Part shown: positions 11,248 through 33,062 of the stretch, in pieces
Layout of the letters: every line of letters begins with the position of its first letter
Position numbering within the stretch: position 1 is the first letter of the stretch
Source of the DNA: Betaproteobacteria bacterium
GTDB taxonomy: Bacteria > Pseudomonadota > Gammaproteobacteria > Burkholderiales > Burkholderiaceae_E
Assembly (NCBI GenBank): GCA_043760705.1
Contig: JAYUOT010000001.1
Coordinates: 53,231-117,230 of the forward strand
Reading direction: 5' to 3'
DNA: 64,000 nt
Made by a program: the position numbers and the translations under genes
The notes under the pieces: model-generated
What the model was told of the DNA's origin: nothing
The model's database searches: none
The model's input: the letters and a program-made list of their open reading frames with translations, nothing else

Positions 11248-11709
11248 ATGACATTGATTCAGCGCATTTCACTGGTATGCTTGCTCGCGGGCTGGGTTTC
11301 TTTAACGGGTTGCGGAGATGGCGGGAGTGGTGTGCCGGTCAGCGGACTCATCGTCAGCAATGCCACGCCCTCATCAGCCAATGGCACCTACGCTTTGACG
11401 GTGGTCACTTCCAACACGGCGGCAGGGATTACCCAGGTCAAGATTGCAGACCCCAGTAATGCGGGCCGCTCTCTACAGGTTTTTTACAATGCTTCGTCGG
11501 CATTGACCTCCGTGATTTACGCCTCGCCAGAATCGCCAGTGAGCCTGATGACTTGCGTTGTGGGTGGCATTTTGGGTGGGGCCACTTCTGCTTGTCCTGC
11601 GGCCGCGATATTCTTTGATCTCCCCGGCAAAAAGATCACCTTCACCAATGCGACTTTCACGCAATTGACGATTGGCGTCGGGACTTTGAACGGGACCGTG
11701 AGCTGGTAG
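11248..11709 (+). CDS. Hypothetical lipoprotein
   Basis: Lipobox LTGC after a hydrophobic signal, with a Ser/Thr/Ala-rich mature part. No family recognised. Confidence 0.5.
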   Translation: MTLIQRISLVCLLAGWVSLTGCGDGGSGVPVSGLIVSNATPSSANGTYALTVVTSNTAAGITQVKIADPSNAGRSLQVFYNASSALTSVIYASPESPVSLMTCVVGGILGGATSACPAAAIFFDLPGKKITFTNATFTQLTIGVGTLNGTVSW

Positions 11710-11879
11710 AAGTAAGCCCAAGTTTGCCAATATGGCCTTGGCGGATCCCGATTACGATATGAAGGGCCCAAGGGCGACTTCGCTGGCCCCGGCGCAAAAC
11801 GGTATGGACTGCCCTACGGTGCGGTCAAGCCGGTTTCAGATTGCGCGAGATTCTTCGCGCCGCTTGGCCTGATGCCCAA

Positions 11880-12575
11880 CTACGGTGGATAGCCCAAAGC
11901 AGGTTGCCCGAACCCTTCCGCGGCACGCCAGCCCGGAGGCTTTAGAAACAGGTTCGCAAGCATCCCACCTGGGTTGTAGGTCAGCGGTTTATCGGGATGC
12001 TGCCGATCATAGGCCAGCTTAAATTCCGCCCCCGTGCGATACCACGGTACCTTGCTGATGTAGCCTTGGAGTGAGGCGTGGCGCCAGCCCAGATTGCGAA
12101 TGCTCGGCCACACTTGGTCGCCATGGCGAATGTGTTCGTCGCGGAACAGTTTCCACATCTCATGACCCAGAATATCTCCGAAAATAAACAAGCGACCATT
12201 GACGATTTCAAACTCGCTCGGGTCGGAGCCTAGCTTGACGCCGTAAGCCGCACCATTGGCACAAAAGGCCCCGTATTGAGGCTCGTAGTGAGCCGGATTG
12301 GCTAAAAACAATGCGCGATTCTCTAGCGATGAAAAATAGTAGGTGCGCTCGGGATCTTGTAGCCTGTGCGAATGGTTCGCCAGACCTCGAGTGGGTTTGC
12401 CCGAAGTAAAGTAGGCGACCGGGTCGTAACCGAGGAGCATCACGGGTTCGCCCTTCGAGTTCAGGTTGGTTGCAAAAATGGTGCCGCAACCGCAGAGTGC
12501 GAGAAATACCGTGATCGCAGCCATAAGTCGTGCAAGGCGTGGAATCAGGATGCTAAAGATTGAGATGCAAGTCAT
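11880..12575 (-). CDS. YHS-domain-like (lipo)protein
   Basis: LALCGCG lipobox. GYDPVAYF...YYFSS...NPAHYEPQYGAFCANG resembles the YHS-type domain as I recall it. Confidence 0.5.
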   Translation of the reverse strand: MTCISIFSILIPRLARLMAAITVFLALCGCGTIFATNLNSKGEPVMLLGYDPVAYFTSGKPTRGLANHSHRLQDPERTYYFSSLENRALFLANPAHYEPQYGAFCANGAAYGVKLGSDPSEFEIVNGRLFIFGDILGHEMWKLFRDEHIRHGDQVWPSIRNLGWRHASLQGYISKVPWYRTGAEFKLAYDRQHPDKPLTYNPGGMLANLFLKPPGWRAAEGFGQPALGYPP

Positions 12576-15044: not shown

Positions 15045-16438
15045 TTACGATTCTTCAGAGACCACCTGCGAATGGCCTTTTTCTATACTCGACTGGACTG
15101 TAGTGGCATGGGACGACGGACTTGGCGAGCTGATGGCACTCGTGCGCTCACTCGATGCTTGAGCGCGCTGAGCGCTCGCAGTATGTGGGCTAGCGCCTAG
15201 CTTATCAAAGAGTTCGCTGTTCTGAACGCGTGCGTCCCAGTCTTTGTACCAACGTGCCAAGGAGGCCACGGGCATGGGTTTGCCGACCAAAAAGCCCTGC
15301 ACGACCCGACAGCCGATGCTCTTCACGGTGTTCCATTCTTCGAGGGTTTCAACGCCTTCGGCGACGGTGTTCAAGCCCAAAGTGCCAGCCATGTGGATGC
15401 ATGCACTGAGCGAGCGCCTTTGAGCAAGGTCTTGATCGACATTCTGCACAAAACTTCGATCAAATTTTAGTTCGGTGATCGCGATGTCGCTCAAATCTGA
15501 CATCGTGATATCGCCTGCTCCAAAATCGTCGAGAGACAATGGGAATCCTTTGAGAGCCAAGCGAGAACGGGTGGTGTTTGAAAGGGTTCGATCCAGGGTG
15601 CTGCGATCTTCTGAGACTTCGAGCATGAGATTTTTTGGGCTCACCCCAAACTGCTGCATCGGCTCAAGAAGTTTTTCAGGCAGGCGTGGATCGAACAAGT
15701 TTGAGTCCGCGAGATTGACCGCAACTTTGAATGCTTGGTCGCCTAGGTTGAGTTGCTCACGTAACAGGTTAAGTGCGCCGGTGGGCCCGGTCAGAACATG
15801 CATCAGCAGCGCGTCGCCAAAGCCCCCGGCTTCCATCTCCGGTAAAAATCGGGCTGGGCTGAGCAGTCCGTGGACTGGGTGCTCCCACCGAATTAAAGCT
15901 TCCCAGCCGACCACCGCACCAGTATCGACGTTCACCTTGGGTTGGTAGAAATTGACAAACTGGCGGGTCTCGAGTCCCGATTGAATTTGCTCGCGTGGTA
16001 TCTCGGCACGAACCGGGGCTGACGTCTCAGCGTCAGCAGCGCCGGACAGCAAGACACCAAGCGCCTCGATTTTGGTGGGTTTAGGCATGGCGCCGATCAA
16101 TGACATGCGCATGGCCTCTACGAGTCTTTGGGCCGAGCGAATCACCCTGGGATCTTCGCCGCTCACCCGCAAGATGCGACCCGCGTAGCTTTCCTCGCCG
16201 ATCTTTTGGATGAGCTCGATGCCGTCCAAGCCCGGCATTTGCAAGTCGCATAGGATCGTTTTGACGTCGCTTTTACGCTCACCTAAATAGTCCAGAGCCT
16301 TCAGCGGCTCGGTGATGCCTTCAGCGGCTCGGTGATGCCTTCAGTGTTTTTGTAGCCAAGTTTATGGAGCTGGGACGTGACTACTTTGACTGCGAAGGCA
16401 TCGTCATCAATAATGAGTATTAGATCATCAGGGTTCAT
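15045..16438 (-). pseudogene. Response regulator with receiver + EAL (c-di-GMP phosphodiesterase) domains, frameshifted by a 20-bp tandem duplication
   Basis: From the ATG at 16438 the frame reads MNPDDLILIIDDDAFAVKVV...GITEPLKASPSR* and stops inside the duplication. Deleting one 20-bp copy gives a continuous 1374-nt frame, ...EPLKALDYLGERKSDVKTILCDLQMPGLDGIEL..., that joins the 15045-16244 ORF. That ORF carries EAL-type motifs (YQPKV, DDFGAG). Confidence 0.8.
16297..16344. repeat. 20-bp tandem duplication, 2.4 copies (gccttcagcggctcggtgat)
   Basis: Perfect period-20 identity across 16297-16344. The flanking bases 16296/16316 and 16325/16345 break the period. Confidence 0.95.
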
Positions 16439-17154: not shown

Positions 17155-17250
17155 TGGCGCATTCGCTAGGGGTGTTGCACCGTGTGGTGCATCTGAGAAA
17201 GTCCCTTTGAACCTGATTGAGTTAATGCTCGCGCAGGGAAGCCAGTCTGA
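17155..17250 (+). promoter_or_regulatory. TPP (THI-box) riboswitch
   Basis: GGGGTG (17169-17174), a P3 hairpin tgcacc/ggtgca, CTGAGA (17193-17198), CCCTTTGAACCTGAT (ACCTGAT at 17211-17217), TAATGC and GCGCAGGGAA (to 17240). Candidate P1 is attcgct (17161-17167) paired with agccagt (17240-17246). A perfect TATAAT sits at 17133-17138, upstream. Confidence 0.85.
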
Positions 17251-17305
17251 TGAACGCCCTCGTTCCCTCGCCAACTTCCCTAAGCTTTTGAACGGACATG
17301 GGACC

Positions 17306-18400
17306 ATGGCACCTGCAATTTCAGATCCCGAAGGGCTGATACCGACTTTGTTGGAGTTTTTGGCGCGCTCTGCCGTCAGCGATCAGGCGTTTAATCTTTT
17401 GGCGCTTCGCCTTTTTGCCTATCAGTTCAAACAGAATCTGGCCTATCAGCGTTTTTGTCAAAGGCGAGGCAAAACACCTCGGCTCGTAAAGCACTGGCAC
17501 GACATTCCGGCGGTGCCGATCAATGCCTTTAAAGATTTTACGCTCAGTTGTATTGCGCATCACGAGTGTGCGCGCGTGTTTATGACGAGCGGTACCACAC
17601 GCGGTGAAGTCAAGGGCCGAAATTTCCACCCGAGCCTTGAAGTTTATGACGCCTCGATGCGGAGTCACTTTCAGCCCAGTTTCATGCCAGACATTGAGCG
17701 CATTCGGATGGGGATTCTTTTTCCAACCGAGTCGATGTTGCCGAACTCATCCCTAGCGCATTACCTGGCGCTCGCCGTTGAACACTTTGGCTTATCCAAG
17801 AGTGCCTATTTCCTGAATGAGACGGGCTTGCAAGTCGATGCGCTTTGTACTGTGCTTGAGGAGGTACAAAGCAACGGTGAGCCGTTTGCCTTGCTGGGCG
17901 CCAGCTATGCGTTTGTGCATTTGTTCGATGCGCTCGACGAGCGCGGTGTGACCTACAAGCTGCCTGCCGGGAGTCGTATTCTCGATACCGGCGGGTTCAA
18001 GGGACAGTCCCGCGAAGTGCCTATGGAGGTCTTTTACGAGAAACTGTCCGCAACCTTCGGTGTAGAACGCAGGCATTGCATCAACATGTACGGCATGACT
18101 GAGCTGAGCACTCAATTCTATGACCTTGGCAATGAGACGATTCCCTCCGTCAAACGGGGGCCGCACTGGATTCGATCTCGCCTAGTCGACCCTCTCACGG
18201 GCCGGGACGTGGCCTTGGGCGAGCGCGGAATTCTTGCTCACACGGATCTCGCCAATTTTAATTCGGTCACCACGATCCTGACGGAGGATGTTGGCGTGGC
18301 GACTCAGGACGGTTTTGTACTGCTCGGGCGCGCGCAAGGCGTGGAGGCCAAGGGTTGCTCGATGGCCGTCGACGAATTCTTAAGATCGGCTTCGACATGA
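17306..18400 (+). CDS. LuxE-like acyl-protein synthetase (adenylating enzyme)
   Basis: LALRLFAYQFKQNLAYQRFC N-terminal region, MTSGTT, DTGGFKG, and LGRAQGVEAKGCS with a near-C-terminal Cys. The ORF track opens at 17207, but that lies inside the riboswitch aptamer. The first post-aptamer in-frame ATG is 17306. Confidence 0.75.
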   Translation: MAPAISDPEGLIPTLLEFLARSAVSDQAFNLLALRLFAYQFKQNLAYQRFCQRRGKTPRLVKHWHDIPAVPINAFKDFTLSCIAHHECARVFMTSGTTRGEVKGRNFHPSLEVYDASMRSHFQPSFMPDIERIRMGILFPTESMLPNSSLAHYLALAVEHFGLSKSAYFLNETGLQVDALCTVLEEVQSNGEPFALLGASYAFVHLFDALDERGVTYKLPAGSRILDTGGFKGQSREVPMEVFYEKLSATFGVERRHCINMYGMTELSTQFYDLGNETIPSVKRGPHWIRSRLVDPLTGRDVALGERGILAHTDLANFNSVTTILTEDVGVATQDGFVLLGRAQGVEAKGCSMAVDEFLRSAST

Positions 18401-19899
18401 CGTCGACTGCATTCAGAGCGGCTTATCTGCCGGGCGTACAGCCGGAAGAGGTCACCTGGCAGGCACTGGAGTTTCTGACGCCGGGCGTTGACGCTGGCGT
18501 CGGCACTTTACCTGGGTCAACCCTCAAGGTGGAGGTTCCTCAGCTGAGCCCGGCTCAGATGGTTGCTTTAGCGCACAGAGTACGCCAAGCCAGCCGCGCG
18601 CAGCTCAAAGAGATGACCGTATCAGACATCGTACGGGTGATTGATGCGGCAATCGCGCGCTTGCTTGATGTCCATGATGAGTATCGCAAGCTCCTGGAAG
18701 AGCTGTTGCCAAAGATTACTGGTTTTGATGAGGAGATGGTGCGTCTCGGGCTGAACGGCTTTCTGCTCTCGTTTCGAGCTCTGCAATTGCACCGCTTCGT
18801 GGCTGAGGATTTTGCGAATCCAAAAATCTTGGATGAATTTCAGCCGCAGACGAAACAAGGCTGGTCTAAAGCCCAGGGTGCAGATTTGACGGTCCATGTT
18901 TGGGCCGGTAATGTGCCGGCGCTACCGTTGTGGAGCATGGTGTCGGCGCTCCTGGTGAAAGCCGGTGTGATCGGAAAGGTGTCGAGTGCCGAGCCGGTAT
19001 TTGCAAGTCTTTTTGCTAGGCTTCTCGTTGAGATTGAACCGCGCTGGCGTGATTGCCTGGCCGTCGTATGGTGGAAGGGTGGCGAGGAGGACCTTGAGTC
19101 CTGTCTTTTTCCCCTGGCGGATGTGGTGCTTGCTTACGGAGGCACCTCCGCGCTCAATGGCATTCAATCGCGGGTCCCATCCTCAACACGCTTCCTGGCC
19201 TACGGCCATAAGATCAGCTTGAGTGTGGTGTCCAAGGCCGCGTTGACAACGCGAAAAGGGCAGGCCTGTGCGCGCTTGGCCGCACTGGATGTGGCGCGTT
19301 GGGATCAGCAGGGCTGCTATTCACCCCATGTCATTTATGTTCAAAGAGGCGCGGCGCTTTCACCCCTGGGCTTCGCGCAACTGCTCGCCGGCGAGTTGGC
19401 CTCACTCGAACCCAAAATGGCTCGACGCCTTTTGTCACTAGAAGAGGCGAGCCGCTTAGCGAACTGGCGTGAGTCGCATGAATTTAAAATGTTGAAGTCT
19501 TCAGCCGCCGCCCCGGCCCGTATCGTCTTGGGGGATCAAGGCCATGCCTGGTGCGTGGTCTATTCTGATGAGGCGATACCCCTCGAACCTGGCCCGCTGA
19601 ATCGAAGTGTATTGGTGGTCGCTGTGGATCGCTTGGAAGATGTCTGCGGTTTGATTCAATCGCAATCTGCTTTCCTGCAGACCGTAGGTTTGGCGGTTTC
19701 GCCTGAAGAATTGTTACCTTTTGCTGGGCGCTTAGGGCAGTTTGGTGCCACACGAATTTGCGCGCTTGGCGCAATGACCTCGCCTGAAGCTGGATGGCAT
19801 CACGACGGGCGATTCAGTTTGCTTGACTTGGTGCGCATGGTCGACGTTGAACACTCAGCCGAAGTACTCGCCGAGAACTTCACAAGTTATGAGTCCTGA
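18397..19899 (+). CDS. LuxC-like acyl-CoA/acyl-protein reductase (aldehyde-forming, ALDH superfamily)
   Basis: The ATGA overlaps the upstream stop. Length about 500 aa, candidate catalytic Cys in WDQQGCYSPH, and a layout typical of LuxC-family reductases. Confidence 0.75.
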   Translation: MTSTAFRAAYLPGVQPEEVTWQALEFLTPGVDAGVGTLPGSTLKVEVPQLSPAQMVALAHRVRQASRAQLKEMTVSDIVRVIDAAIARLLDVHDEYRKLLEELLPKITGFDEEMVRLGLNGFLLSFRALQLHRFVAEDFANPKILDEFQPQTKQGWSKAQGADLTVHVWAGNVPALPLWSMVSALLVKAGVIGKVSSAEPVFASLFARLLVEIEPRWRDCLAVVWWKGGEEDLESCLFPLADVVLAYGGTSALNGIQSRVPSSTRFLAYGHKISLSVVSKAALTTRKGQACARLAALDVARWDQQGCYSPHVIYVQRGAALSPLGFAQLLAGELASLEPKMARRLLSLEEASRLANWRESHEFKMLKSSAAAPARIVLGDQGHAWCVVYSDEAIPLEPGPLNRSVLVVAVDRLEDVCGLIQSQSAFLQTVGLAVSPEELLPFAGRLGQFGATRICALGAMTSPEAGWHHDGRFSLLDLVRMVDVEHSAEVLAENFTSYES

Positions 19900-20704
19900 G
19901 ATGAATCATTTTCTGGACATGCGGTCGGTCACTTACGGTTACGTCGACCAAGCAGCGGTGGTGAACAATGTCAGCCTGCAGATAGCTCCCGCCAGGATTC
20001 ACAGCCTGATTGGCCGGAGTGGCTGCGGCAAGAGCACCTTGCTCAAGTTGGCGGCCGGGCTACTCATGCCCCGCTTGGGGGAGGTTGTTTTTCAAGCTCA
20101 GGAGGTCACCGGTCCGCTGTCTGATATGGGGTATGTGTTCCAGTCGCCGACCTTACTCTCCTGGATCGACGTAATTCATAATGTCTTGCTGCCGATTTCG
20201 CTCCATCGTTCGGTGACCCCGGCGGATCGGGCGCGCGCCGAACAATTACTCGGGCAAATGGGGTTAACCGGCCTGGAGCGGCGTCTCCCGCAACATCTCT
20301 CGGGTGGACAGCAGAGCCGGGTGGCCATTGCTCGCGCCCTGATCGCTGCACCTCGTATTTTATTGATGGATGAGCCTTTCTCTGCACTCGATGCAATTAC
20401 GCGCGAGGAATTGCAGCACGACTTTTTAAGCCTGTGCCGGCACCAAGGGATGGCGGTGTTCTTTGTCACCCACGACATTGCCGAGGCCGTGTACTTAGGC
20501 GATACCGTGAGCGTCATGCGTGCGGGCCGCATGGTTCTCGATCGCCACAGCCATCTGGCTTTTCCGAGGCCACCCGGGATTCGATACAGCCCTGCCTTTA
20601 ATGCGCTGTGTGCTGAACTGCGCGAGGCGATGGAAGGCGAGGTGAGAGAGGGTGAGGCTAAAGATCACCAGGCCAACAAAGAGCAAAAAGTGGAGGCCGC
20701 TTGA
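19889..20704 (+). CDS. ABC transporter ATP-binding protein, NitT/TauT family (ThiZ-like)
   Basis: Walker A GRSGCGKST, signature LSGGQQ and Walker B LLMDEPFS. The alternative ATG at 19901 lies 2 nt after the luxC-like stop. Confidence 0.85.
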   Translation: MSPEMNHFLDMRSVTYGYVDQAAVVNNVSLQIAPARIHSLIGRSGCGKSTLLKLAAGLLMPRLGEVVFQAQEVTGPLSDMGYVFQSPTLLSWIDVIHNVLLPISLHRSVTPADRARAEQLLGQMGLTGLERRLPQHLSGGQQSRVAIARALIAAPRILLMDEPFSALDAITREELQHDFLSLCRHQGMAVFFVTHDIAEAVYLGDTVSVMRAGRMVLDRHSHLAFPRPPGIRYSPAFNALCAELREAMEGEVREGEAKDHQANKEQKVEAA

Positions 20705-21459
20705 TACGCCGCGACGATGCAGCCGCAGTCTTGCTCGGCCTCCTGTGCCTACTGGCCTGGGAAGTGATCGTCGCGCTGTTTCATCCCTCGCCTTTGGTTT
20801 TACCAGCTCCCTCGGTCATTGCAGCCTCACTTTGGAAAGGCCTCACCAGCGGATTTCTCTGGCCACACATTGTCTTGACGACGATCGAGGCCTTGTTAGG
20901 GCTGATGCTGGGCGCATGTATGGGCTTCATCGGTGGAGTGACGCTCGGTGAGTCGGCTAGCTTGCGCCGAATTTTCATGCCTTTTGTATTGGTGAGTCAG
21001 GTGATTCCAAAGTTGGCCCTGGCCCCCTTGTTTATCGTGTGGTTCGGCTTTGGCACCTTGCCGACGGTGATTATGACGGCGCTGATTTGTTTCTTTCCTT
21101 TGCTGGAGAACACGGCCACCGCCATGCAGCAAGTTGATCCTCAACGCCTTGAGTTGTTTCGCATGTTGCGGGCGAATTCGTGGCAGACACTATTACGCTT
21201 AAAAATCCCCTCGGGATTGCCGAGCATCATGGCCGGCTTTCGGGTGGCCGTGGTGCTTGCCTGGGTGGGTGCCGTCGTGGCCGAGTTTATCGGAGCCAGT
21301 CGTGGCCTGGGCGCCTTGATTATTGGGGCTCAAGGTTCGATGGATACCTCCCTGATGTTTGCCGTATTGGTGGTGATTACGGTGCTGGGTCTGGCGTCAT
21401 ATAAAGCGGCGCTATGGTTGGAACTGCGCATGTTGCGTGCGCAGTTTTTTGGGTTTTAG
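20701..21459 (+). CDS. ABC transporter permease, NitT/TauT family (ThiX-like)
   Basis: The TTG start overlaps the ATPase stop (TTGA). Six hydrophobic segments and an EAA-like loop (ENTATAMQQVDP...LRLKIPSGLPSIMAG). Confidence 0.85.
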   Translation: MIRRDDAAAVLLGLLCLLAWEVIVALFHPSPLVLPAPSVIAASLWKGLTSGFLWPHIVLTTIEALLGLMLGACMGFIGGVTLGESASLRRIFMPFVLVSQVIPKLALAPLFIVWFGFGTLPTVIMTALICFFPLLENTATAMQQVDPQRLELFRMLRANSWQTLLRLKIPSGLPSIMAGFRVAVVLAWVGAVVAEFIGASRGLGALIIGAQGSMDTSLMFAVLVVITVLGLASYKAALWLELRMLRAQFFGF

Positions 21460-21471
21460 AAGGGTTAAGCG

Positions 21472-22482
21472 ATGTTGAACAAGTTATGCCGAAGTTTTAT
21501 TGCGCCTGTTGTCCTTGGTCTATGGGCAATGCAAGCGCCCGGGCTTGCACAAGCGCAGTCTGCGCCCAAGGCAGATCGAGTGACTGTCGCGGGGTGGAGT
21601 AAACCGATCACCGAAATTACCAACTTGCTGGTGGAGGAACAGAAGGGATTCTTTAGAGCTAAGAGTATCGACTTTGCCTATGTGCCTGGCGCGGGTGGCG
21701 GTGATGCCTTGCGCAATTTGCTGAGCGGACAGGCTGATGTCGCGTTCACTGATCCAGGCTCGCTCTTTGCCGCACTCGACAAGGGTGAAAAGCTGCGAGT
21801 GATTTATGACATCTATCCGCAAAACGTGTTCAACGTGGTCTCACTCAAATCTAAAAACATTACCAAGCCCGCCGATTTGAAGGGCAAGCGCATTGGTGTC
21901 TACAGTCTAGCGAGCGGCACCCGACAAAATCTGCAAGTTCTCTTGCACCAGGCTGGCCTGACTGAAAGTGACGTCACGGTCGTCGTCACTGGCCTTTTGA
22001 ATTTTGCGCCTTTGATGCAGGGGCAGGTCGATGCCACCGCGGCAACGGACACCGGTTTGTTGGTGGGGCGCCAGCGCGGACTTGGCGAAGTCAATGTGAT
22101 GGAGGTTAAAAACCATCTGAATATCTCCAGTGATTTTTTTGTGGTTCGCGAAGAAACCTACCAGAAACGGAAGGACGTTCTGAAACGATTCTTGCAGGCC
22201 TATCAAGACAGCGCGGCCTGGATGATTCGAGCGCCTAATGAAGCCGCAACCCTGGCGATTAAATATGCGATTGATGGGCAAAATCCAGAAGTCAATATCG
22301 AGATCATCAAGCTGCGCAATCTATCGAGTGTCTCTAGTCTTACTCAAAAATCCGGGCTGGGTACGCTTGACGTGGAAGCCTTGCAAAGAGCCGCTCAAGC
22401 CTATAAGGCGATTGGTGTGCTTCAACGTGACATCAAGGTTTCTGAGCTCCTGGGGCAGGACCTTTTGCCGGGTAAGCGATGA
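21472..22482 (+). CDS. Periplasmic substrate-binding protein, NMT1/THI5-like (ThiY-like)
   Basis: Signal peptide ending AQA. GFFRAKSIDFAYVPGAGGGDALRNLLSGQADVAF is typical of SsuA/ThiY/NMT1-type binding proteins. Confidence 0.8.
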   Translation: MLNKLCRSFIAPVVLGLWAMQAPGLAQAQSAPKADRVTVAGWSKPITEITNLLVEEQKGFFRAKSIDFAYVPGAGGGDALRNLLSGQADVAFTDPGSLFAALDKGEKLRVIYDIYPQNVFNVVSLKSKNITKPADLKGKRIGVYSLASGTRQNLQVLLHQAGLTESDVTVVVTGLLNFAPLMQGQVDATAATDTGLLVGRQRGLGEVNVMEVKNHLNISSDFFVVREETYQKRKDVLKRFLQAYQDSAAWMIRAPNEAATLAIKYAIDGQNPEVNIEIIKLRNLSSVSSLTQKSGLGTLDVEALQRAAQAYKAIGVLQRDIKVSELLGQDLLPGKR

Positions 22483-23312
22483 ACGCCTTAAACCCCTCGA
22501 GCGGCGCGGCAAGCAAGAGCGAGCGCACAGTGCACAGGCTGCCCGGGAAGTTTGACGGCAAGGTGGTTTTGGTGACCGGTGCGAGTCGAGGCATCGGCGC
22601 GGCCATTGCCAAGGCGTTCGCGGCGGAAGGTGCGATGGTCTTGGTCAACTATCTTCGTAATAGCGTCGCCGCGAATGAGGTGGTTGCGCACTGTCAAGCT
22701 CTCGGTGGCGAGGCCTGGGCACTGCAAGCAGATGTACGCTCGCGCGAGGCTGTAGAGGCCATGGTGGCTGAGGCATTGAGTGAGGTGGGCCAGATCGATG
22801 TGTTGGTCAATAACGCCTTGAGTCCTTACGCGTTTGACCCCGAGCAGCGCCCGCGTTTTGGTGATATCCCCTGGGCCGCGTATCAAGAACAGTTTGAGGC
22901 TTCGGTGCAGGCCGCCTATCACACCTGTCAGGCTTTGCTCGAACACTTCAAGCGGCGCGGGCAAGGCAGTATTGTGAATTTGGTCAGTGACTTGGTCGAG
23001 CATCCCGTGATCGCTTATCACGACTACAGCACGGCAAAATCTGCCCTGGTCGGTTTTAGTCGCAACCTCGCCGCCGATCTAGGACCGCTCGGCATTCGGG
23101 TGAATTGCGTGGCGCCGGGCCTAGTGTTTCCGACAGAGTCTAGTCGTCACACCCAGGAGGCCGTCAAAGACGCGATTATTTCGCAAACCCCCTTGGGGCG
23201 AATTGCCAATCCAGACGATATCGCAGGACCCGTGTTGTTCCTGGCCTCGTCGTGGAGCCGCTTTATGACCGGTCAGGTACTGGTGGTTGACGGCGGCTTG
23301 GTGATGAAATGA
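22479..23312 (+). CDS. SDR family oxidoreductase (FabG-like)
   Basis: The ATGA overlaps the binding-protein stop. VLVTGASRGIG, NNAL and YSTAK motifs. Confidence 0.85.
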   Translation: MNALNPSSGAASKSERTVHRLPGKFDGKVVLVTGASRGIGAAIAKAFAAEGAMVLVNYLRNSVAANEVVAHCQALGGEAWALQADVRSREAVEAMVAEALSEVGQIDVLVNNALSPYAFDPEQRPRFGDIPWAAYQEQFEASVQAAYHTCQALLEHFKRRGQGSIVNLVSDLVEHPVIAYHDYSTAKSALVGFSRNLAADLGPLGIRVNCVAPGLVFPTESSRHTQEAVKDAIISQTPLGRIANPDDIAGPVLFLASSWSRFMTGQVLVVDGGLVMK

Positions 23313-24205
23313 AGCGGCATCGGAGCAAAGCCATGATTCAGGGGGCCATGGCCGTGGCCGGTGGTGATGTTGGCGCCGTGGCTGATCGCGCTCAGAATAA
23401 AGCTGCGTGCCAAGGAGATGGCTTCCTGGAGCGGATGCCCCAAGGCCAGATAAGCGGCAATCGCCGAGGACAAGGTGCAGCCGGTGCCGTGGACATTGCG
23501 GCTCGCGATGCGCACCGAGGACAAATGGACCGGTCGCGAATATCCCTGTCGCGAATATCCCGGTTTCGTAGGTCCCAAGCTAGAGTCGGTGGGGCTGGCT
23601 TGCGGCGGAGCCGCTTGCAGCAGCACATCCACGACCTCTTCGCCGACCAGGTGACCGCCCTTGAGCAACACGGCACGTGCACCCAGGTCCAAGAGATCTC
23701 GTGCCGCTTGATCCAGCTCATCGACAGCCGTAAGGTCTCTTCCCAAGAGAAGTCCTGCTTCGTCCAGATTCGGCGTGATCACACGGGCGCGAGGAAACAA
23801 CTCGCGCACCAGAATCTCAACGGTTTCTTGGGCGATCAGCGCATCACCACTGGTCGCGACCATGACCGGATCCAGCACAACGTTGGGCAGTCGGTAATGA
23901 TCGATCGCCCAGGCCACGACTTCGACGATGCCGGGTGCGTGCAACATGCCAATTTTGACCGCATCAACCCCAATGTCTTCCACGACGGCCTGAATTTGAG
24001 CCTTGAGAAATTCGGGTGGCACGGCGTGAATGCCGCGTACACCCAGGGTGTTTTGCGCCGTCAGTGCGGTGATCGCACTCATGCCATAGCATCCCAGGGC
24101 CGCAAAGGTTTTGAGATCGGCCTGGATGCCGGCACCGCCGCCACTATCAGAGCCTGCGATGGTCAGGACGCGTGCATAGCTAAGAGTTTTCCCCATGCCG
24201 GGCAT
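23273..24205 (-). CDS. thiD: Hydroxymethylpyrimidine / phosphomethylpyrimidine kinase
   Basis: VLTIAGSDSGGGAGIQADLKTF, TPNLDEAG and HGTGCTLSSAIA motifs. The ORF opens at 24394, but the ThiD domain begins just after the ATGs at 24205/24196. Confidence 0.85.
   Translation of the reverse strand: MPGMGKTLSYARVLTIAGSDSGGGAGIQADLKTFAALGCYGMSAITALTAQNTLGVRGIHAVPPEFLKAQIQAVVEDIGVDAVKIGMLHAPGIVEVVAWAIDHYRLPNVVLDPVMVATSGDALIAQETVEILVRELFPRARVITPNLDEAGLLLGRDLTAVDELDQAARDLLDLGARAVLLKGGHLVGEEVVDVLLQAAPPQASPTDSSLGPTKPGYSRQGYSRPVHLSSVRIASRNVHGTGCTLSSAIAAYLALGHPLQEAISLARSFILSAISHGANITTGHGHGPLNHGFAPMPLHFITKPPSTTST
23533..23562. repeat. 15-bp in-frame tandem repeat inside thiD (encodes GYSRQ-GYSRP)
   Basis: gtcgcgaatatccct / gtcgcgaatatcccg: two copies with one mismatch. 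Confidence 0.85.
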
Positions 24206-24234: not shown

Positions 24235-25347
24235 ATGAGCTCAAAACCCAAGAGTGCTGTGCTGGGCGCTGGCCTGATGGGTCGGCTACTGGCTCATCGC
24301 CTGGCCGAATTGGGGCATCAGGTTGAGGTGTTTGAGGCGCAGGGGCCGGACGCGCAAGGGGCCGCAGCAAGAGTCGCTGCGGCGATGCTTGCACCCTTGG
24401 CAGAATCGGCGATCACGGAATTCCCCGTGGTGCGTATGGGTCAACATTCATTGCTGCGCTGGCCGCAACTGATTGCGGGCCTTGCTGAGCCCGTGTTTTT
24501 TCAGCAGAACGGTACCTTGATCGTCTGGCATCGGCAGGATGCGGCGGAGGCGCGCCGCTTTGAGGAATGCCTCAAGCAAACCCAGCTTAAGCTCTCCGAT
24601 TTGCCTGCGCCGGCTCATCTTGTCGAAGCTTCACTCGCCGACCTCGAGCCCGCTCTCAGCGGCCGCTTTTCGCAGGCGCTCTACCTACCCGGCGAAGGTC
24701 AACTCGACAATCGCCAGTTGCTCGCCGCACTTTTACAAAGCTTGCAGCGGCAAGGTGTGACGCTGCACTGGCATAGCCCACGTTCCTTGGAAGATTTCCC
24801 GGTCTCTAGGGATCGTCATTCAAGAAAGGGCCCGGATGCTACTGATTTTGACTGGGTCTTTGATTGTCGAGGCTTGGGCGCTCGCGCTCAATGGCCCGCC
24901 TTGCGCGGGGTCCGTGGCGAGGTGATCCGGCTCTATGCGCCAGAGGTGACTTTGCAAAGACCCACCCGCTTGATTCACCCTCGTTACCCACTCTATATTG
25001 CGCCCAAAGAAAACCATGTGTTTGTGGTCGGTGCGACCGAAATTGAGAGTGATGATTTGTCACCTGCCAGTGTGCGCTCGACCCTTGAACTTTTGAGCGC
25101 TGCGTACACCGTTCACAGCGGTTTTGCCGAAGCGCGCATTTTGGAGATCGCGACCCAGGCTCGGCCGACCCTGCCTGATAATTTACCGGCCGTGCGTTGC
25201 CTGGACGAGCGTCGCCTGCAAATCAACGGACTGTATCGCCACGGCTTTCTCATCGCTCCGGCGCTGCTGGATGTGGTGCTGGAATGGGTGCAACATCAAA
25301 CAAAGATCCTGGCGGGTGCATTGGAGTTGAAATTTGAACATGACTGA
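24235..25347 (+). CDS. thiO: FAD-dependent glycine oxidase
   Basis: N-terminal dinucleotide fold AVLGAGLMGRLLAHRLAELGHQVEVFE, a DAO-family layout, and a position directly upstream of thiS-thiG. Confidence 0.8.
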   Translation: MSSKPKSAVLGAGLMGRLLAHRLAELGHQVEVFEAQGPDAQGAAARVAAAMLAPLAESAITEFPVVRMGQHSLLRWPQLIAGLAEPVFFQQNGTLIVWHRQDAAEARRFEECLKQTQLKLSDLPAPAHLVEASLADLEPALSGRFSQALYLPGEGQLDNRQLLAALLQSLQRQGVTLHWHSPRSLEDFPVSRDRHSRKGPDATDFDWVFDCRGLGARAQWPALRGVRGEVIRLYAPEVTLQRPTRLIHPRYPLYIAPKENHVFVVGATEIESDDLSPASVRSTLELLSAAYTVHSGFAEARILEIATQARPTLPDNLPAVRCLDERRLQINGLYRHGFLIAPALLDVVLEWVQHQTKILAGALELKFEHD

Positions 25348-25555
25348 TTCGTTAACACTGACCGTGCAGATCAATAAGCTGCCCTACGCCTTGCCGCAGA
25401 ATGCAACCCTGGCCGATGCGGTCGCTCTGGCAGGAGTCAAGCCGCCTTTTGCCGCCGCCGTAAACCTGCGCTTTGTGCCGCGAGGCACCTATGACCAGTG
25501 CAAACTTCAACCCAATGATCAGATCGAGCTGATTGCACCGATTACCGGAGGCTGA
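25340..25555 (+). CDS. thiS: Sulfur-carrier protein ThiS
   Basis: About 70 aa ending in ...APITGG, the C-terminal Gly-Gly. An alternative TTG start lies at 25334. Confidence 0.85.
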   Translation: MTDSLTLTVQINKLPYALPQNATLADAVALAGVKPPFAAAVNLRFVPRGTYDQCKLQPNDQIELIAPITGG

Positions 25556-25561
25556 CCGCGA

Positions 25562-26380
25562 ATGACTCAACACTCTCAACCTACCCTTAGTGCGGCACCA
25601 GACGGCATGATTTTGTACGGGCAGCACTTTGCCAGTCGTTTGCTGCTGGGCACCTCACGCTATCCCTCACCGGCCGTGTTGTTGAAAGCCATTGAACGGT
25701 CGCGCCCCGCCATGCTGACAGCTTCCTTACGACGTCAGTCGGCGCAGGGTGATGCCTCACAGAGCTTTTGGAATCTACTCAAGGAGTCCAAGGTACCCGT
25801 GCTGCCTAACACGGCTGGCTGCCATAGTATTCAAGAAGTGATCACCACCGCCGAAATGGCGCGCGAAGTCTTTGAAACCGACTGGATCAAGCTCGAGCTG
25901 ATCGGTGACGATTACAGTTTGCAGCCGGATATTCTTAATTTGCCTGAGGCCGCTGCTCTTCTGATCAAGGCCGGCTTCAAGGTCTTGCCCTATGCGACCG
26001 ACGATCTGGTGCTGTGTCGTCGCCTGGTCGATGTGGGTTGTCAAGCGGTCATGCCCTGGGCGGCTCCGATTGGCACGGGTAAAGGCCCGATCAATCCCTA
26101 TGCGCTACGCATGTTGCGTGAGCGTTTGGAAGTTCCGCTCATCGTGGACGCCGGTCTTGGATTGCCCTCGCACGCTTGCCAGGTGATGGAGTGGGGCTAC
26201 GATGCGGTCTTGCTCAATACGGCCGTGGCCCTGGCCCAAGACCCGGTCGCGATGGCGGGGGCTTTTGCCGACGCAGTCCAGGCCGGCCATGCTGCGTTTC
26301 GTGCGGGTGCCATGCAGGCCCAGGAAAGCGCTCAACCCAGTACGCCTGTGATGGGCACTCCTTTTTGGCATCAGTCATGA
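25562..26380 (+). CDS. thiG: Thiazole synthase
   Basis: VLPNTAGC, IKLELIGD, VMPWAAPIGTGKG and PLIVDAGLG motifs. Confidence 0.92.
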   Translation: MTQHSQPTLSAAPDGMILYGQHFASRLLLGTSRYPSPAVLLKAIERSRPAMLTASLRRQSAQGDASQSFWNLLKESKVPVLPNTAGCHSIQEVITTAEMAREVFETDWIKLELIGDDYSLQPDILNLPEAAALLIKAGFKVLPYATDDLVLCRRLVDVGCQAVMPWAAPIGTGKGPINPYALRMLRERLEVPLIVDAGLGLPSHACQVMEWGYDAVLLNTAVALAQDPVAMAGAFADAVQAGHAAFRAGAMQAQESAQPSTPVMGTPFWHQS

Positions 26381-27309
26381 AAGACCCAAATCAAATGAAC
26401 CCCTTAGACAGCTCGCAAGACCTTGCCGAAGCGATCGCTCGAACCCATGTGTCGATGCTGGCTGGGGATGCCAGGCCTTACGCGGATGCGGTTCAAGCGC
26501 AGGACCGGGGCCTGTCGCCTCAGGCGGCTGGCGTTGTGCAAGGCGCTCGCATGCTTGGCTTCGTCGAGCATGATGCTCAGTGTTTGAGTCAGGCCTGGCA
26601 GGCTCAGACGCTTAGAACCGGACAGTTCTCACTGCCAGCATGGCCGGACCATCCGCAAGACTTTGGAATGGTCCCCTGGCCGAGAAATAATGGCTTTCCG
26701 AGTTGTCCAACAGGCCTCGGGTTGTACGCCGTGCTGCCCGATGCCCAGTGGGTGGCGCGCATGGCGCAAGCGGGTGTGCCGACGCTGCAATTGCGGTTTA
26801 AGTCTGACGACCCTGAAGCTGTGAAGCGCGAGGTGCGTGCAGCCGTCAAGGCGGTACAGGGCACTCAGTCTTTACTTTTCATTAACGATCATTGGCAAAT
26901 CGCGATGGACGAGGGAGCCTACGGTGTACATCTCGGGCAGGAAGATATGGAGATCGCCCCCATCGAGACTCTTCGTGCTTCGGGCCTGCGCTTGGGCTTG
27001 AGCACCCATGGCTATGTCGAGATGTTGCGGGCCGAAGCGCATGGCCCCAGCTACCTGGCCCTCGGCGCGGTGTTCCCAACCACCTTGAAGCGCATGCAAA
27101 CGGCACCGCAAGGCACGGGCCGCCTAGCCGCCTATGCCAAGCTGTTGGCCGGCCGATCCCTGGTGGCCATAGGCGGCATTGATTTGGATCGGGTGCCGCT
27201 GGTGATGAAGTGCGGCGTCGGGTCCATTGCGGTGGTGCGTGCGATTACGGGAGCGAGCGATCCGGAAAAGAGTGCGGCGCAACTGACCGAATTAATGACA
27301 AGAGTTTAG
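26377..27309 (+). CDS. thiE: Thiamine-phosphate synthase with an N-terminal extension of about 100 aa
   Basis: The ATGA overlaps the thiG stop. The ThiE domain runs from about LGLYAVLPD (LQLRFKS, INDHWQIA, GVHLGQED, YLALGAVFPT, VAIGGI). Confidence 0.85.
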   Translation: MKDPNQMNPLDSSQDLAEAIARTHVSMLAGDARPYADAVQAQDRGLSPQAAGVVQGARMLGFVEHDAQCLSQAWQAQTLRTGQFSLPAWPDHPQDFGMVPWPRNNGFPSCPTGLGLYAVLPDAQWVARMAQAGVPTLQLRFKSDDPEAVKREVRAAVKAVQGTQSLLFINDHWQIAMDEGAYGVHLGQEDMEIAPIETLRASGLRLGLSTHGYVEMLRAEAHGPSYLALGAVFPTTLKRMQTAPQGTGRLAAYAKLLAGRSLVAIGGIDLDRVPLVMKCGVGSIAVVRAITGASDPEKSAAQLTELMTRV

Positions 27310-28565
27310 TCGTACTTCCTGGCGTCCTCAATGACTCTGCCGTCATTGGCTAATCCGCCAGGAGCGGTCCAGCGGACTTCTCCGCGTAGTTTGGTGACAT
27401 CGCGAATAGTATGGGTCACTTTCTCGGCAAGAGTGTCGGCCGCCGCGCCGCCCACCATGGCTTCAGCACTTTCGCAGTGAAGGGTCATCGCATCATTGGC
27501 CATCTCGCCCGAGACCACCAGTCTTGCCTTGCTGATTTGCGGATGGCGCTTGATGATCTCTGCGATTTGACCGGGATGCACAAACATGCCGCGCACCTTG
27601 GTGGTTTGATCGGCACGTCCCATCCAGCCCTTGATGCGAACATTGGTGCGACCGCAAGGCGAGGCGCCTGCCAGCACGGCGGAAAGATCGCCGGTGCCAA
27701 AACGAATCATGGGATAAGTCAGGTTGAAATTGGTAATTACTATCTCGCCCACTTCACCGTCCGGCACCGGATCGCCCGTGCCGGGGCGAACAATTTCGAG
27801 AATGCAATCCTCGTCGAGAATCATGCCCTCAACCGCCTCGGACTCGTAGGCCACCATGCCCAGTTCGGCCGTGCCGTACCACTGCAATACCGTCGGCACG
27901 CCATTGTCTTTGAACCAGGTTCGTAGGCTCGGCGGCAGGGCTTCAGCCGCACATAGGGCGCGCTTGAGTTGGCTAATGTCGAGTTGAAGCTCTTGCGCCT
28001 TTTCGATGATGATGCGCAGAAACGAAGGTGTGCCAACATAGGCATCCGGCTTCAGCGCTCGCACCACATCAATCTGCTGCTCAGTCTGGCCACTGCCTGC
28101 GGCGATGATGGAGCAACCCAGCTTTCTCGCGCCGGAGTCGACCATCCATGCACCCGGTGTCATGTGATAAGCAAAACAGTTCTGGAGAATATGCCCCTTG
28201 CGGATGCCCGCCGCGTGAAGCGCGCGAGCGGTGCGCCAAGGATCATCGCCCGTGGCCTCGGGCTCGAAGATCGGCCCAGGTGACATAAAGAGGCGAGCTA
28301 CGGCACCGGGCGATTCAGTATTAAGGCCGCCGAAAGGGGGCAGGGCTTCTTGCATTGCCTTAAGTTCGGGCTTGCGCAGCACGGGCAATTGAGCCAGAGC
28401 CTTGCGACTATTAATGTCCTGAGGCTTGATCGCAGCGAGCATCTTGCCCCAGGCAGGCGACTTGATTTGTGCATGGGCAATGTATTTGGGCAGTGCGTTA
28501 AACAGCTCGCCTTCGCGTTGTTCTGGTGTGCGGACTTCCTTGTCGTCGTAATACTGGCTCATCAA
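27306..28565 (-). CDS. Phenylacetate-CoA ligase (PaaK) family adenylating enzyme
   Basis: About 420 aa with a PaaK-like layout (YGTAELG, FGTGDLS, GRADQTTKVRGMFVHP). Confidence 0.8.
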   Translation of the reverse strand: MMSQYYDDKEVRTPEQREGELFNALPKYIAHAQIKSPAWGKMLAAIKPQDINSRKALAQLPVLRKPELKAMQEALPPFGGLNTESPGAVARLFMSPGPIFEPEATGDDPWRTARALHAAGIRKGHILQNCFAYHMTPGAWMVDSGARKLGCSIIAAGSGQTEQQIDVVRALKPDAYVGTPSFLRIIIEKAQELQLDISQLKRALCAAEALPPSLRTWFKDNGVPTVLQWYGTAELGMVAYESEAVEGMILDEDCILEIVRPGTGDPVPDGEVGEIVITNFNLTYPMIRFGTGDLSAVLAGASPCGRTNVRIKGWMGRADQTTKVRGMFVHPGQIAEIIKRHPQISKARLVVSGEMANDAMTLHCESAEAMVGGAAADTLAEKVTHTIRDVTKLRGEVRWTAPGGLANDGRVIEDARKYD

Positions 28566-28573
28566 AACTTCCT

Positions 28574-29377
28574 TTACAGCCAGCGCTTGCGACGGCGATA
28601 TGACTTCACGTCGGCGAAGGACTTGCGGCCTTCCTGTGCAACGCCGAGATAGAACTCTTTGACGTCCTCGTTCTCGGCGAGATCTTTGGCCGCTCCGTCC
28701 ATCACGATACGACCGTTCTCAAGGATGTAGCCGTAATCGGAGTTCCGTAGGGCGACATTTGTGTTTTGCTCGGCGAGCAAGAAGCTCACATTCTCTTTTT
28801 GGTTGAGGTCGCGTACGATCTCGAAAATTTCGGCAACGATCTGTGGGGCCAGGCCCATCGAAGGCTCATCCAGAAGGATCATTTTCGGGTTGGCCATGAG
28901 CGCGCGACCGACAGCGGTCATTTGCTGTTCGCCACCCGAGGTATAGCCCGACTGAGAAGTGCGACGGGTTTTAAGTCTAGGAAAATAGTGATAGACCTTA
29001 TCGAGGGCGACCGCTGTGTCGGCACGATTAAGCTTTCGCGTATAGGCACCCGTCAGCAGGTTTTCTTCGACGGTGAGGTGGCCGAAACAGTGACGACCTT
29101 CCATCACCTGGATGACGCCCCGATTGACCAGATCGGCCGGCGTGAGGCGCTCGATGGCCTCACCTTTGTAGGAGATCGTGCCCTTGGTGACTTCGCCGCG
29201 CTCGCCTTTGAGAAGGTTCGAGACCGCTCGCAAGGTCGTGGTCTTGCCCGCACCGTTCGCGCCAAGAAGGGACACAATCTTGCCCTCTTCGACAGTAAGA
29301 GACACGCCCTTGAGCACGAGGATCACGTGGTTATAAATAACCTCGATGCCGTTGACAGATAAAAGTGCTGTGGCCAT
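28574..29377 (-). CDS. Branched-chain-amino-acid-type ABC transporter ATP-binding protein (LivF-like)
   Basis: Walker A GANGAGKTT, signature SGGEQQ and Walker B LLDEPS. Confidence 0.9.
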   Translation of the reverse strand: MATALLSVNGIEVIYNHVILVLKGVSLTVEEGKIVSLLGANGAGKTTTLRAVSNLLKGERGEVTKGTISYKGEAIERLTPADLVNRGVIQVMEGRHCFGHLTVEENLLTGAYTRKLNRADTAVALDKVYHYFPRLKTRRTSQSGYTSGGEQQMTAVGRALMANPKMILLDEPSMGLAPQIVAEIFEIVRDLNQKENVSFLLAEQNTNVALRNSDYGYILENGRIVMDGAAKDLAENEDVKEFYLGVAQEGRKSFADVKSYRRRKRWL

Positions 29378-33033: not shown

Positions 33034-33062
33034 AGCTTCGTTTTACCTATTCGCTGCTGTTC

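Follow-up and report, generated by a model that had tools for sequence, protein, structure and literature searches.

Salvage operons controlled by thiamine pyrophosphate (TPP), the mechanism of the LuxC-LuxE reductase, the association of the protein OarX with thiamine and, as a general idea, the reductive salvage of carboxylate vitamers are all previously known. In the ThiXYZ/ThiY route, for instance, formylaminopyrimidine is taken up and then processed by YlmB and TenA. The present analysis concerns an operon in which elements of these systems are found together. It consists of six plus-strand genes at positions 17306-23312 of a 64,000-nt stretch from a Betaproteobacteria bacterium (assembly GCA_043760705.1, contig JAYUOT010000001.1; the whole stretch is referred to here as the window). 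Behind a TPP riboswitch, these genes encode, in this order, a LuxE-like protein, a LuxC-like protein, the ATPase, permease and NMT1-family binding protein of an ABC transporter, and a short-chain dehydrogenase/reductase (SDR). Our reading, to which we give a probability of about one half, is that this is a TPP-repressed, self-contained cassette predicted to import and reduce an oxidised thiamine moiety, the favoured conversion being that of 4-amino-2-methylpyrimidine-5-carboxylate (PCA) into hydroxymethylpyrimidine (HMP).

The first two proteins are related to the Lux reductase, the structure of which is available as PDB entry 7XC6. In this complex, LuxE is devoid of the C-terminal subdomain of ANL enzymes, uses Lys238 and Arg355 in catalysis, and has Cys364, in the sequence TRxxKGCxLS, as its acyl carrier, while LuxC is acylated on a conserved Cys (Tian et al. 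2022, PMC9157457). The last protein is related to OarX, a FabG-like SDR that has been tied to TPP riboswitches since 2002 (Rodionov et al. 2002, via PMC11223231). Oliveira-Filho, Rodionov and Hanson (2024, PMC11223231) dealt with 87 OarX genomes. According to the main text of their paper, canonical OarX is found in clusters with thiM and thiazole genes, has occasional 'acyl-CoA synthetase' neighbours (A. puyangensis, C. nuruki), and has been proposed to reduce activated PCA, 4-methylthiazole-5-acetic acid (MTA), thiamin acetic acid, or thiazolones. The genetic tests described in that text for C. glutamicum, which covered carboxylates and thiazolones and never aldehydes, were negative for PCA, MTA and thiamin acetic acid; only an oarX-fmnO operon is described there for this organism, and no LuxC/LuxE-type genes are named.

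In the window, the aptamer of the riboswitch (THI element) is located on the plus strand at 17158-17256. It is a full-length match to RF00059 (64.4 bits, above the gathering score of 54.3), which is the sole Rfam family matched across the 64 kb. The start of the luxE-like gene lies 50 bases 3' of the aptamer, and the junctions between the six genes are either 4-nt overlaps or gaps of 1-12 nt, so they can be regarded as a single operon.

The LuxE-like acyl-protein synthetase (17306-18400, plus strand; 364 aa) is a member of PF04443 (E 5e-20, 72.1 bits) that matches LuxE of the solved complex (7xc6_E) with an E-value of 1.6e-17. This protein holds the motifs MTSGTT, DTGGFK and KGCS. The lysine of the second motif (K232) is aligned to LuxE K238, whereas R342 is found 9 residues ahead of C351, which is the spacing of LuxE R355 to C364. 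C351 itself, within AKGCS, is located 13 residues from the C-terminus. Like LuxE, it is of small size for an ANL enzyme, and it combines membership of PF04443 with an ANL core without the C-terminal subdomain, the Lys/Arg pair and the acyl-carrier Cys. GR-x6-KGCS appears in 78 of 80 homologues, and 77 have the Cys at precisely this distance of 13 residues from the C-terminus. It is predicted that the LuxE-like protein adenylates a carboxylate and holds it as a thioester on Cys351.

The LuxC-like acyl-thioester reductase (18397-19899, plus strand; 500 aa) belongs to PF05893 (E 9e-89, 298.5 bits) and matches 7xc6_A with an E-value of 5e-21. The catalytic cysteines are aligned (DQQGCYSP, holding C307 within QQGCYSP, versus DQQACFST), and Q428, H469 and D470 correspond to LuxC Q402, H442 and D443. 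C307 and its surroundings, as well as Q428, H469 and D470, are invariant in 23 LuxC-like homologues. The 7XC6 complex from P. phosphoreum is the only PDB match to the two proteins; 7xc6_A is also the best Foldseek match of the LuxC-like protein, at about 20% identity and from a mediocre model (pLDDT 67). From its aligned residues, the LuxC-like protein is predicted to take the acyl group on Cys307 and to reduce it to the aldehyde. A natural fusion of both proteins has been found in a metagenomic representative of 871 aa (P0474), in which a LuxE-like part (48-381) and a LuxC-like part (461-866) are joined by a linker of about 40 residues. This fusion keeps both the acyl-carrier Cys, as RGC, and the catalytic Cys, as QQGC, and it therefore supports a functional coupling of the two enzymes.

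The cassette thus shares with the Lux reductase the two Pfam families, adjacent overlapping genes, the acylated Cys of LuxC, the Lys/Arg pair and KGC acyl-carrier Cys of LuxE, and the equivalents of Q402, H442 and D443. From the sequences, a CoA-independent reduction of an acid to an aldehyde at the expense of ATP and NADPH is also implied here. Nevertheless, the cassette proteins are just ~20-25% identical to the Lux proteins and stay far below the NCBIfam equivalog cut-offs (67.6 versus 550 bits on NF052244 for LuxE; 112.6 versus 750 bits on NF052251 for LuxC), which is why they are considered family members and not orthologues. In contrast to the lux operon, the cassette lacks luxD, luxAB and luxG, has a TPP riboswitch in front and an SDR gene after, and is found in non-luminous soil, freshwater and food bacteria. 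Membership of a true lux operon was rejected on account of the missed cut-offs and the absence of luxD and luxAB from the window and from the other lineages examined. A further difference concerns the myristoyl cleft of LuxC: in an alignment of ~20% identity, seven of its eight mapped positions are replaced (W111 by G, M114 by a gap, S118 by F, A121 by Q, S166 by L, T169 by W and F436 by P) and only L107 is kept. Five of the replacements are residues invariant in the LuxC-like family (F126, Q130, L176, W179 and P463). The replaced residues are suggestive of a substrate unlike myristate.

The analogy with carboxylic acid reductases (CARs) and alpha-aminoadipate reductase is only functional. These enzymes also adenylate a free, often aromatic carboxylate with ATP, hold it as a covalent thioester, and reduce it with NADPH. 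Unlike in CARs, no phosphopantetheinyl carrier (PP-binding) or NAD_binding_4 domain was found in any protein of the operon, and the acyl group of the cassette would be held on protein cysteines, in a system split over two polypeptides.

A different use of the same two proteins can be imagined, in which the pair is not reductive and acts instead by ALDH-like oxidation or as an acyl-transferring ligase, detoxifying a thiamine antimetabolite or damage product. LuxC indeed falls within the superfamily of aldehyde dehydrogenases (ALDHs), and antagonists of the bacimethrin type are relevant in the same freshwater habitats; detoxification is also offered as an alternative role for OarX in the main text of the 2024 paper (PMC11223231). 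However, the full acyl-carrier motif GR-x6-KGC of LuxE is conserved, and the catalytic Glu and Asn of ALDHs are reported to be absent in LuxC (PMC9157457); the two observations speak for the reductive mechanism of the Lux enzymes. Moreover, repression by TPP suits acquisition more than detoxification, and a toxin would hardly call for a high-affinity importer of its own. We consider this explanation very improbable.

To establish how widespread the cassette is, relatives of the LuxC-like protein were sought in GTDB, with a single genome for each species. Such a protein is encoded in at least 483 species genomes, and the best 80 of them (53-83% identity) were used to compare loci. Most of these belong to the Comamonadaceae, including Limnohabitans, Polaromonas, Variovorax, Acidovorax, Ramlibacter and Hylemonella. 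The complete six-gene cassette was found by tblastn with the window proteins in 60 of the 80 loci, with the same order and strand in all 60, and the 20 incomplete cassettes all end at contig ends. A TPP element is present on the plus strand ahead of the cassette in 66 of the 71 loci with upstream sequence. Among these elements, 55 are located within 400 nt of the luxE-like start, and the other 11 are separated from it by one gene, which is thiD or, in locus L008, a CytX-like gene; L018 and L020 share the spacing of L008.

These counts were obtained with custom covariance models. A strict regular expression for the THI box missed most divergent riboswitches and was replaced by a looser one, and then by the models R1 and R2, built from upstream regions. 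R1 was too narrow; R2 was built from R1 matches, so its scores on those sequences are circular and were cross-checked with the Rfam model on independent subsets. With this model, 20 related loci are confirmed at E<=0.01, the gathering score being exceeded in 14, and the same coordinates are obtained in eight of the eight divergent loci tested. The scores of these eight were 69.3, 57.6, 54.4, 52.9, 52.0 and 51.6 bits, plus two cut by contig ends. L043 and L073 are above the Rfam gathering score. Four cassettes (L028, L032, L064 and L074) are devoid of the riboswitch, and in all four this looks like a secondary loss. A fifth locus without a TPP element, L071, has just 186 nt of upstream sequence, too short to judge. 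The intergenic regions of L064 and L074 measure just ~100 nt and come after an unrelated gene. In L009 (8431-8535 and 8739-8842), a second TPP-like match lies upstream of the first.

Beyond these loci, distant homologues were sought by tblastn against plasmids and by a homology search with the LuxC-like protein of Ornithinibacillus. Members of the family were thus found in the Alphaproteobacteria (Azospirillum), the Gammaproteobacteria (Pantoea dispersa), many Bacillaceae (Priestia, Geobacillus, Metabacillus, Halobacillus, Ureibacillus, Niallia and others), the Clostridia (Desulfosporosinus, Desulforamulus and Desulfonispora) and on small plasmids of Lactobacillaceae. In a third homology search, Planococcus, Kurthia, Acinetobacter and Corynebacterium were absent among the 120 matches listed. 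The full six-gene cassette follows an Rfam-scored TPP element in Azospirillum (59.6 bits), Geobacillus (64.1 bits), Desulfosporosinus (69.3 bits) and Ureibacillus (61.1 bits), as well as in Priestia, where the score of 49 bits is below the threshold. In Halobacillus, Desulfonispora and Desulforamulus, the six-gene cassette was read from the genes alone.

The transport genes are the variable part. In Pantoea, the TPP element (71.7 bits) is followed by the LuxE-like, LuxC-like and SDR genes and no transporter. An L. plantarum plasmid carries a TPP element (67.6 bits), a PbuX-like NCS2 permease, LuxE, LuxC and SDR, while the plasmid pMEGANia of Niallia taxi (L087) holds tandem TPP elements (85 and 72.9 bits), ThiW, an NCS2 permease, LuxE, LuxC and SDR. 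Since the transporters vary by lineage, the invariant unit is formed by the riboswitch, the LuxE-like and LuxC-like genes and the SDR gene. Where the six proteins are all present, they are ~52-63% identical between Betaproteobacteria and Firmicutes, a level of identity which, together with the plasmid copies, suggests that the cassette moves as a module. In Ornithinibacillus salinisoli (L077), it is embedded in a thiamine operon, in the order TPP element, tenI, thiO, thiS, thiG, thiF, a weak second TPP element, the cassette and thiD. This second element (8742-8808, between thiF and the luxE-like gene) reaches 27 bits with the custom model and suggests that the cassette was inserted along with its own riboswitch.

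Some individual loci show peculiarities. The tandem riboswitches of L087 are both complete (2564-2672 and 2751-2860). In L092 (Desulfonispora thiosulfatigenes, 10959-11983), the binding-protein gene is split into two open reading frames (ORFs), and the cassette genes of L086, a record under the name Pseudomonas silvicola, lack annotation, give two-piece matches and are apparent pseudogenes. Both look like decaying copies of the cassette.

The absence of a THI-box linkage from all other genomes had been set beforehand by the original prediction as one of the findings that would refute it; the linkage is observed in Beta-, Alpha- and Gammaproteobacteria, Bacilli and Clostridia. This bears on the possibility that the substrate of the cassette has nothing to do with thiamine, being for example a fatty acid or another organic acid, and that the cassette serves a sparing or compensation response to TPP limitation or keeps the riboswitch as a relic. 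Fatty acids are the substrates of the Lux proteins, which are the characterised members of the two enzyme families; sulfonates, taurine and nitrate are also bound by proteins of the binding-protein family; and in 28 loci, from many genera, the cassette has no thi gene in its vicinity. Against these observations, the riboswitch linkage persists across phyla despite the swaps of transporter, the cassette is embedded in thi operons in Ornithinibacillus and in the Ramlibacter-type loci, and the replaced cleft positions described above point away from fatty acyl groups. Furthermore, the known regulons of TPP riboswitches consist almost wholly of genes for thiamine synthesis, salvage and transport (PMC11223231). 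An unrelated substrate is thus judged quite improbable.

In the window, the importer is formed by an ABC transporter ATPase (19901-20704, plus strand; PF00005, E 4e-31), a permease (20701-21459, plus strand; PF00528, E 5e-30) and a periplasmic NMT1/THI5-family binding protein with an N-terminal signal peptide (21472-22482, plus strand; PF09084, E 2.6e-48, 165 bits). The nearest NCBIfam models are taurine, sulfonate and nitrate-type ATPases for the first and SsuC/TauC-type permeases for the second. The binding protein is 56-63% identical across Betaproteobacteria, Alphaproteobacteria and Firmicutes, and conserves the invariant motifs PGxGGGxA, YPQNVFN, SGTRQN and DATAATDTG. In a profile search, its nearest solved relatives are 4nmy, 3qsl, THI5 (9e-9), ThiY 3ix1 (2e-8) and TauA (2.5e-4). 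A single-sequence AlphaFold model of this protein had a pLDDT of 36 and was set aside.

As in ThiXYZ/ThiY (3IX1), an NMT1/THI5-family binding protein, a permease and an ATPase are found under TPP control, and the proposed product is a pyrimidine precursor for ThiD. The processing enzymes are different, as the cassette encodes predicted reductases instead of a deformylase and an aminopyrimidine hydrolase. The binding protein had been called 'ThiY-type' in the original prediction. The Pfam family stands, but orthology with ThiY was rejected: the similarity to 3IX1 is weak (E 3.9e-4 with the single sequence, 2e-8 with the profile), and PGxGGGxA, YPQNVFN and SGTRQN have no counterpart in the aligned ThiY.

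The last gene of the operon (22479-23312, plus strand) encodes an OarX-like SDR of 277 aa (PF13561/PF00106). OarX-type features in this protein are the TGASRGIG motif, the Y183-x3-K motif (Y183-STAK), its position at the end of a riboswitch-controlled operon, and an overlap with thiD. The best NCBIfam model is NF006393, with 290.5 bits against a cut-off of 292, and the next family reaches 208 bits. The same model is the best one for all cassette SDRs (275-296 bits; next family ~190-208), whereas SDRs from canonical OarX contexts (oarX-fmnO and thiM-thiE-thiD-oarX) score 377-426 bits. The cassette SDRs share 47-77% identity among themselves and the canonical OarX proteins 45-65%, against 38-50% between the two clades, and the motif PxxPYH[DE]YTTAK is common to both. 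According to these scores, identities and shared motif, the cassette SDR appears to represent a sister clade of OarX. The plasmid SDRs that come next in similarity (41-46% identity), behind those of the cassettes, are found in classical OarX contexts: a TPP element followed by the SDR and an LLM flavin oxidoreductase, the oarX-fmnO arrangement, in Rhodococcus; by thiM, thiE, thiD and the SDR in Gemmobacter; and by the SDR alone in Exiguobacterium. The likeness to OarX extends to the location downstream of a TPP riboswitch, to the clustering with thiD and other thi genes, and to a published hypothesis similar in spirit, that of a reductive step salvaging carboxylate oxidation products, as set out in the main text of the 2024 study (PMC11223231). 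The difference is that cassette SDRs form a separate clade that is always accompanied by LuxE/LuxC-like genes.

This last feature is relevant to the question of whether the three enzymes form a linear pathway at all. The SDR could, for example, reduce an oxo or ketone group on the ring, as a generic function of OarX, while LuxEC acts on a different group or substrate, its aldehyde being fated elsewhere. Ketones are the usual substrates of FabG-like SDRs, the function of OarX was left unsolved by the 2024 tests, and OarX is common without LuxEC, either alone, with fmnO, or with thiMED. Nevertheless, the SDRs linked to LuxEC form their own clade, the minimal unit, seen in Pantoea, is exactly LuxE-LuxC-SDR, and no other consumer of an aldehyde (such as a transaminase or oxidase) is conserved in the operon in the loci examined. 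Such a division of labour is considered improbable.

In automatic annotation, these genes bear other names. PGAP labels the LuxC-like genes of non-luminous bacteria 'acyl-CoA reductase' with the term 'GO:0008218 bioluminescence', the LuxE-like genes 'long-chain fatty acid--CoA ligase' or 'acyl-CoA synthetase', and the SDR genes '3-oxoacyl-ACP reductase' (L082-L085). These names are likely misleading, and they could account for the genes next to oarX that were described in 2024 as 'acyl-CoA synthetase'.

From family membership, conserved residues and gene context, we infer the reductase activity of the cassette enzymes, its direction and its substrate, and the proposed pathway would operate as follows. 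When TPP is scarce, the riboswitch would permit expression of the cassette, and the ABC importer, with its NMT1-family binding protein, would take in a carboxylate derivative of a thiamine moiety. The LuxE-like enzyme would adenylate the carboxylate with ATP and move the acyl group, independently of CoA, to its own near-C-terminal Cys351. Its flexible tail would then bring this group to Cys307 of the LuxC-like enzyme, and the latter would use NAD(P)H to reduce the thioester to the aldehyde. The OarX-like SDR would finally convert the aldehyde into a primary alcohol that enters thiamine synthesis. In the favoured version, PCA would be converted into 4-amino-5-formyl-2-methylpyrimidine and this into HMP, which ThiD would phosphorylate. 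The sequence acid, aldehyde, alcohol had already been put forward by the original prediction; it fits the conserved catalytic residues, while the reductase activity itself keeps the status of a prediction. As a corollary, canonical OarX (without LuxEC) would reduce the same or a similar aldehyde.

Several observations point to the pyrimidine as the moiety involved. In 6-7 Ramlibacter-type loci, thiD is part of the same riboswitch-controlled operon, directly upstream of the cassette and on the same strand (six loci in the automated count, seven visible in the locus table), and in Ornithinibacillus it is found directly downstream, also on the same strand; in 24 loci it is convergent with the SDR gene. 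ThiD likely consumes the product of the cassette. The CytX-like gene located between the riboswitch and luxE in L008 encodes a predicted HMP transporter (TIGR02358 as best match), and NCS2 nucleobase permeases partner the cassette in Lactobacillaceae and Niallia. Among the solved relatives of the binding protein, THI5 and ThiY outrank the taurine binders. Finally, reference genomes of Limnohabitans are reported to lack thiC (PMC12637900), and the Limnohabitans loci retain thiOSG, thiD and thiE beside the cassette. In these bacteria, with thiC reportedly absent and thiOSG kept, the pyrimidine would be the missing part.

The same chemistry could be applied to the thiazole or to the whole vitamin, that is, to the conversion of MTA into hydroxyethylthiazole, for use by ThiM, or of thiamin acetic acid into thiamine. 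The evidence for this comes partly from the neighbours. ThiW, the predicted thiazole S-component of an energy-coupling factor transporter, is the first gene product of the Niallia operon (TIGR02359, 175 bits); the Ornithinibacillus cassette comes after tenI-thiOSGF; and canonical OarX is found within thiM-thiE-thiD-oarX in Gemmobacter. In addition, the closest structural relative of LuxE is phenylacetate-CoA ligase, an aryl-acetate enzyme (PMC9157457). On the other hand, no thiM was found beside any LuxEC cassette in the annotated or Pfam-labelled loci, the systematic search having covered only thiD, thiO, thiG and thiE. The partner transporters (CytX-like, NCS2, NMT1 family) are of nucleobase or pyrimidine types, and thiamin acetic acid, a bulky cation, would be ill suited to NCS1/NCS2 permeases. 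Limnohabitans-type loci have the genes for de novo thiazole synthesis (thiOSG) nearby, and the genus is reported to lack thiC, so that the pyrimidine would be what these organisms are missing. This alternative is unlikely, although it retains appreciable weight.

Some of the results weigh against the reduction of PCA to HMP as set out above. The riboswitch has been lost in four related loci; the mapping of the cleft residues depends on an alignment of ~20% identity; and the LuxC-like proteins grade without a break into uncharacterised homologues, down to ~30% identity. This family is large and continuous (463 representatives at 50% clustering and E<=1e-30 in an exhaustive search), and its TPP linkage was assessed down to ~40% identity. 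The binding protein, which would be the one to recognise the candidate ligand, is not a ThiY orthologue. ThiW shares the Niallia operon, and this, with the clustering of OarX with thiM and thiazole genes, leaves room for the thiazole branch. A literature search found no biochemical or genetic test of the cassette, and in the 2024 tests with C. glutamicum, as reported in the main text, PCA, MTA and thiamin acetic acid gave negative results (PMC11223231). This last result is not applicable to the cassette, because no LuxE/LuxC-type genes are reported for C. glutamicum, where PCA may never have been activated.

Regarding novelty, the searchable literature yielded no link between LuxC/LuxE-type reductases and thiamine, in agreement with the original prediction, nor any description of the conserved triad or of its wide distribution. 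By contrast, the idea of reductive salvage is only partly new, since OarX has been connected with TPP riboswitches since 2002 and the reduction of carboxylates was proposed in the main text of the 2024 paper (PMC11223231). If the reading of the cassette as a reductive salvage system is correct, vitamin B1 salvage would gain a reaction of a new type, in which an oxidised vitamer is reduced at the expense of ATP and NAD(P)H, and LuxC/LuxE-type reductases would have their first physiological role beyond bioluminescence. OarX would also gain a concrete, testable function as the reductase of a thiamine-moiety aldehyde. Among the species-level genomes with a LuxC-like protein are those of Limnohabitans and Polaromonas, both abundant in the freshwater bacterioplankton and reported to be pyrimidine auxotrophs, and other hosts are plant-associated (Pantoea, Azospirillum and Variovorax) or food lactobacilli. 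A new vitamer would alter the models of B1 cross-feeding.

A more extensive hypothesis can be formulated by joining these elements: PCA would be a hitherto unrecognised B1 vitamer exchanged in the environment; a horizontally mobile, widespread TPP-riboswitch cassette, with a LuxE/LuxC-type CoA-independent reductase of heteroaromatic carboxylates and an OarX-like reductase, would make HMP from it; freshwater bacterioplankton without thiC, such as Limnohabitans, would thereby have an extra source of pyrimidine; and OarX would be a reductase of formylpyrimidine (or of a thiazole aldehyde). As a whole, this hypothesis is tentative, and we regard it as possible more than probable.

Downstream of the cassette, thiD (HMP/HMP-P kinase; 23273-24205, minus strand; TIGR00097, 310.6 bits versus a cut-off of 205) is convergent with the operon and overlaps the 3' end of the SDR gene by 40 nt (23273-23312). 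This overlap is kept in 24 related loci (31-34 nt by tblastn). There is no space for a terminator between both genes, and their transcripts are therefore antisense to each other. The next genes, thiO-thiS-thiG-thiE (24235-27309, plus strand), provide the context of de novo thiazole synthesis and coupling, and were identified as thiO (TIGR02352, 259 bits), thiS (TIGR01683, 39.3 bits; C-terminal GG), thiG (PF05690, 331 bits) and thiE (TIGR00693, 151.6 bits). A local motif search in the window and the loci found no thiC, whole genomes being outside its scope. The layout anticipated by the original prediction, with a riboswitch in front, the LuxE, LuxC and NMT1 families and their quoted motifs, the SDR as last gene, thiD convergent and thiOSGE adjoining, is therefore the one found in the window. 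The start codons of thiD (likely 24205 or 24196) and thiO (24235) are divergent and ~30 nt apart. No TPP element precedes thiO in the window; in L006 and L007, a second TPP riboswitch is found ahead of this gene (15673-15770 and 15707-15804, respectively).

Between the aptamer and the luxE-like start codon lies the presumed expression platform (17257-17305, plus strand), in which no intrinsic terminator was found; a promoter scan gave no sigma-70 consensus site. In the minimum-energy fold, the aptamer segment CAGGGAAG pairs with CUUCCCU (~17276-17282), and GUCCC and GGGAC are paired directly 5' of the AUG. This fold, which is no better than that of shuffled sequence (z = 0.05, without statistical support), would fit a mechanism of ribosome-binding-site sequestration.

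The flanks of the locus are unrelated to it. An EAL protein and SDRs are encoded upstream, and a PaaK-like ligase and a Liv-type ABC system downstream. Directly past thiE, the minus-strand genes at 27306-35984 comprise a PaaK-like AMP-binding ligase (27306-28565), the Liv-type ABC transporter (28574-33845) and a second AMP-binding enzyme (33966-35984); they have no relation to the cassette, yet form another operon of an adenylating enzyme and an importer. Incidental Rfam matches in the compared loci were a c-di-GMP-I riboswitch upstream of a helix-turn-helix gene in Desulfosporosinus lacus (L089, 1433-1523, 80.8 bits) and a 'Bacillus-plasmid' RNA on the L. plantarum plasmid (L083, 10035-10095, 74.2 bits). 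Farther along the window, a very long ORF of 2202 aa is found at 54091-60699 (plus strand), adjoined by large ORFs at 51225-54005 and 60702-61847.

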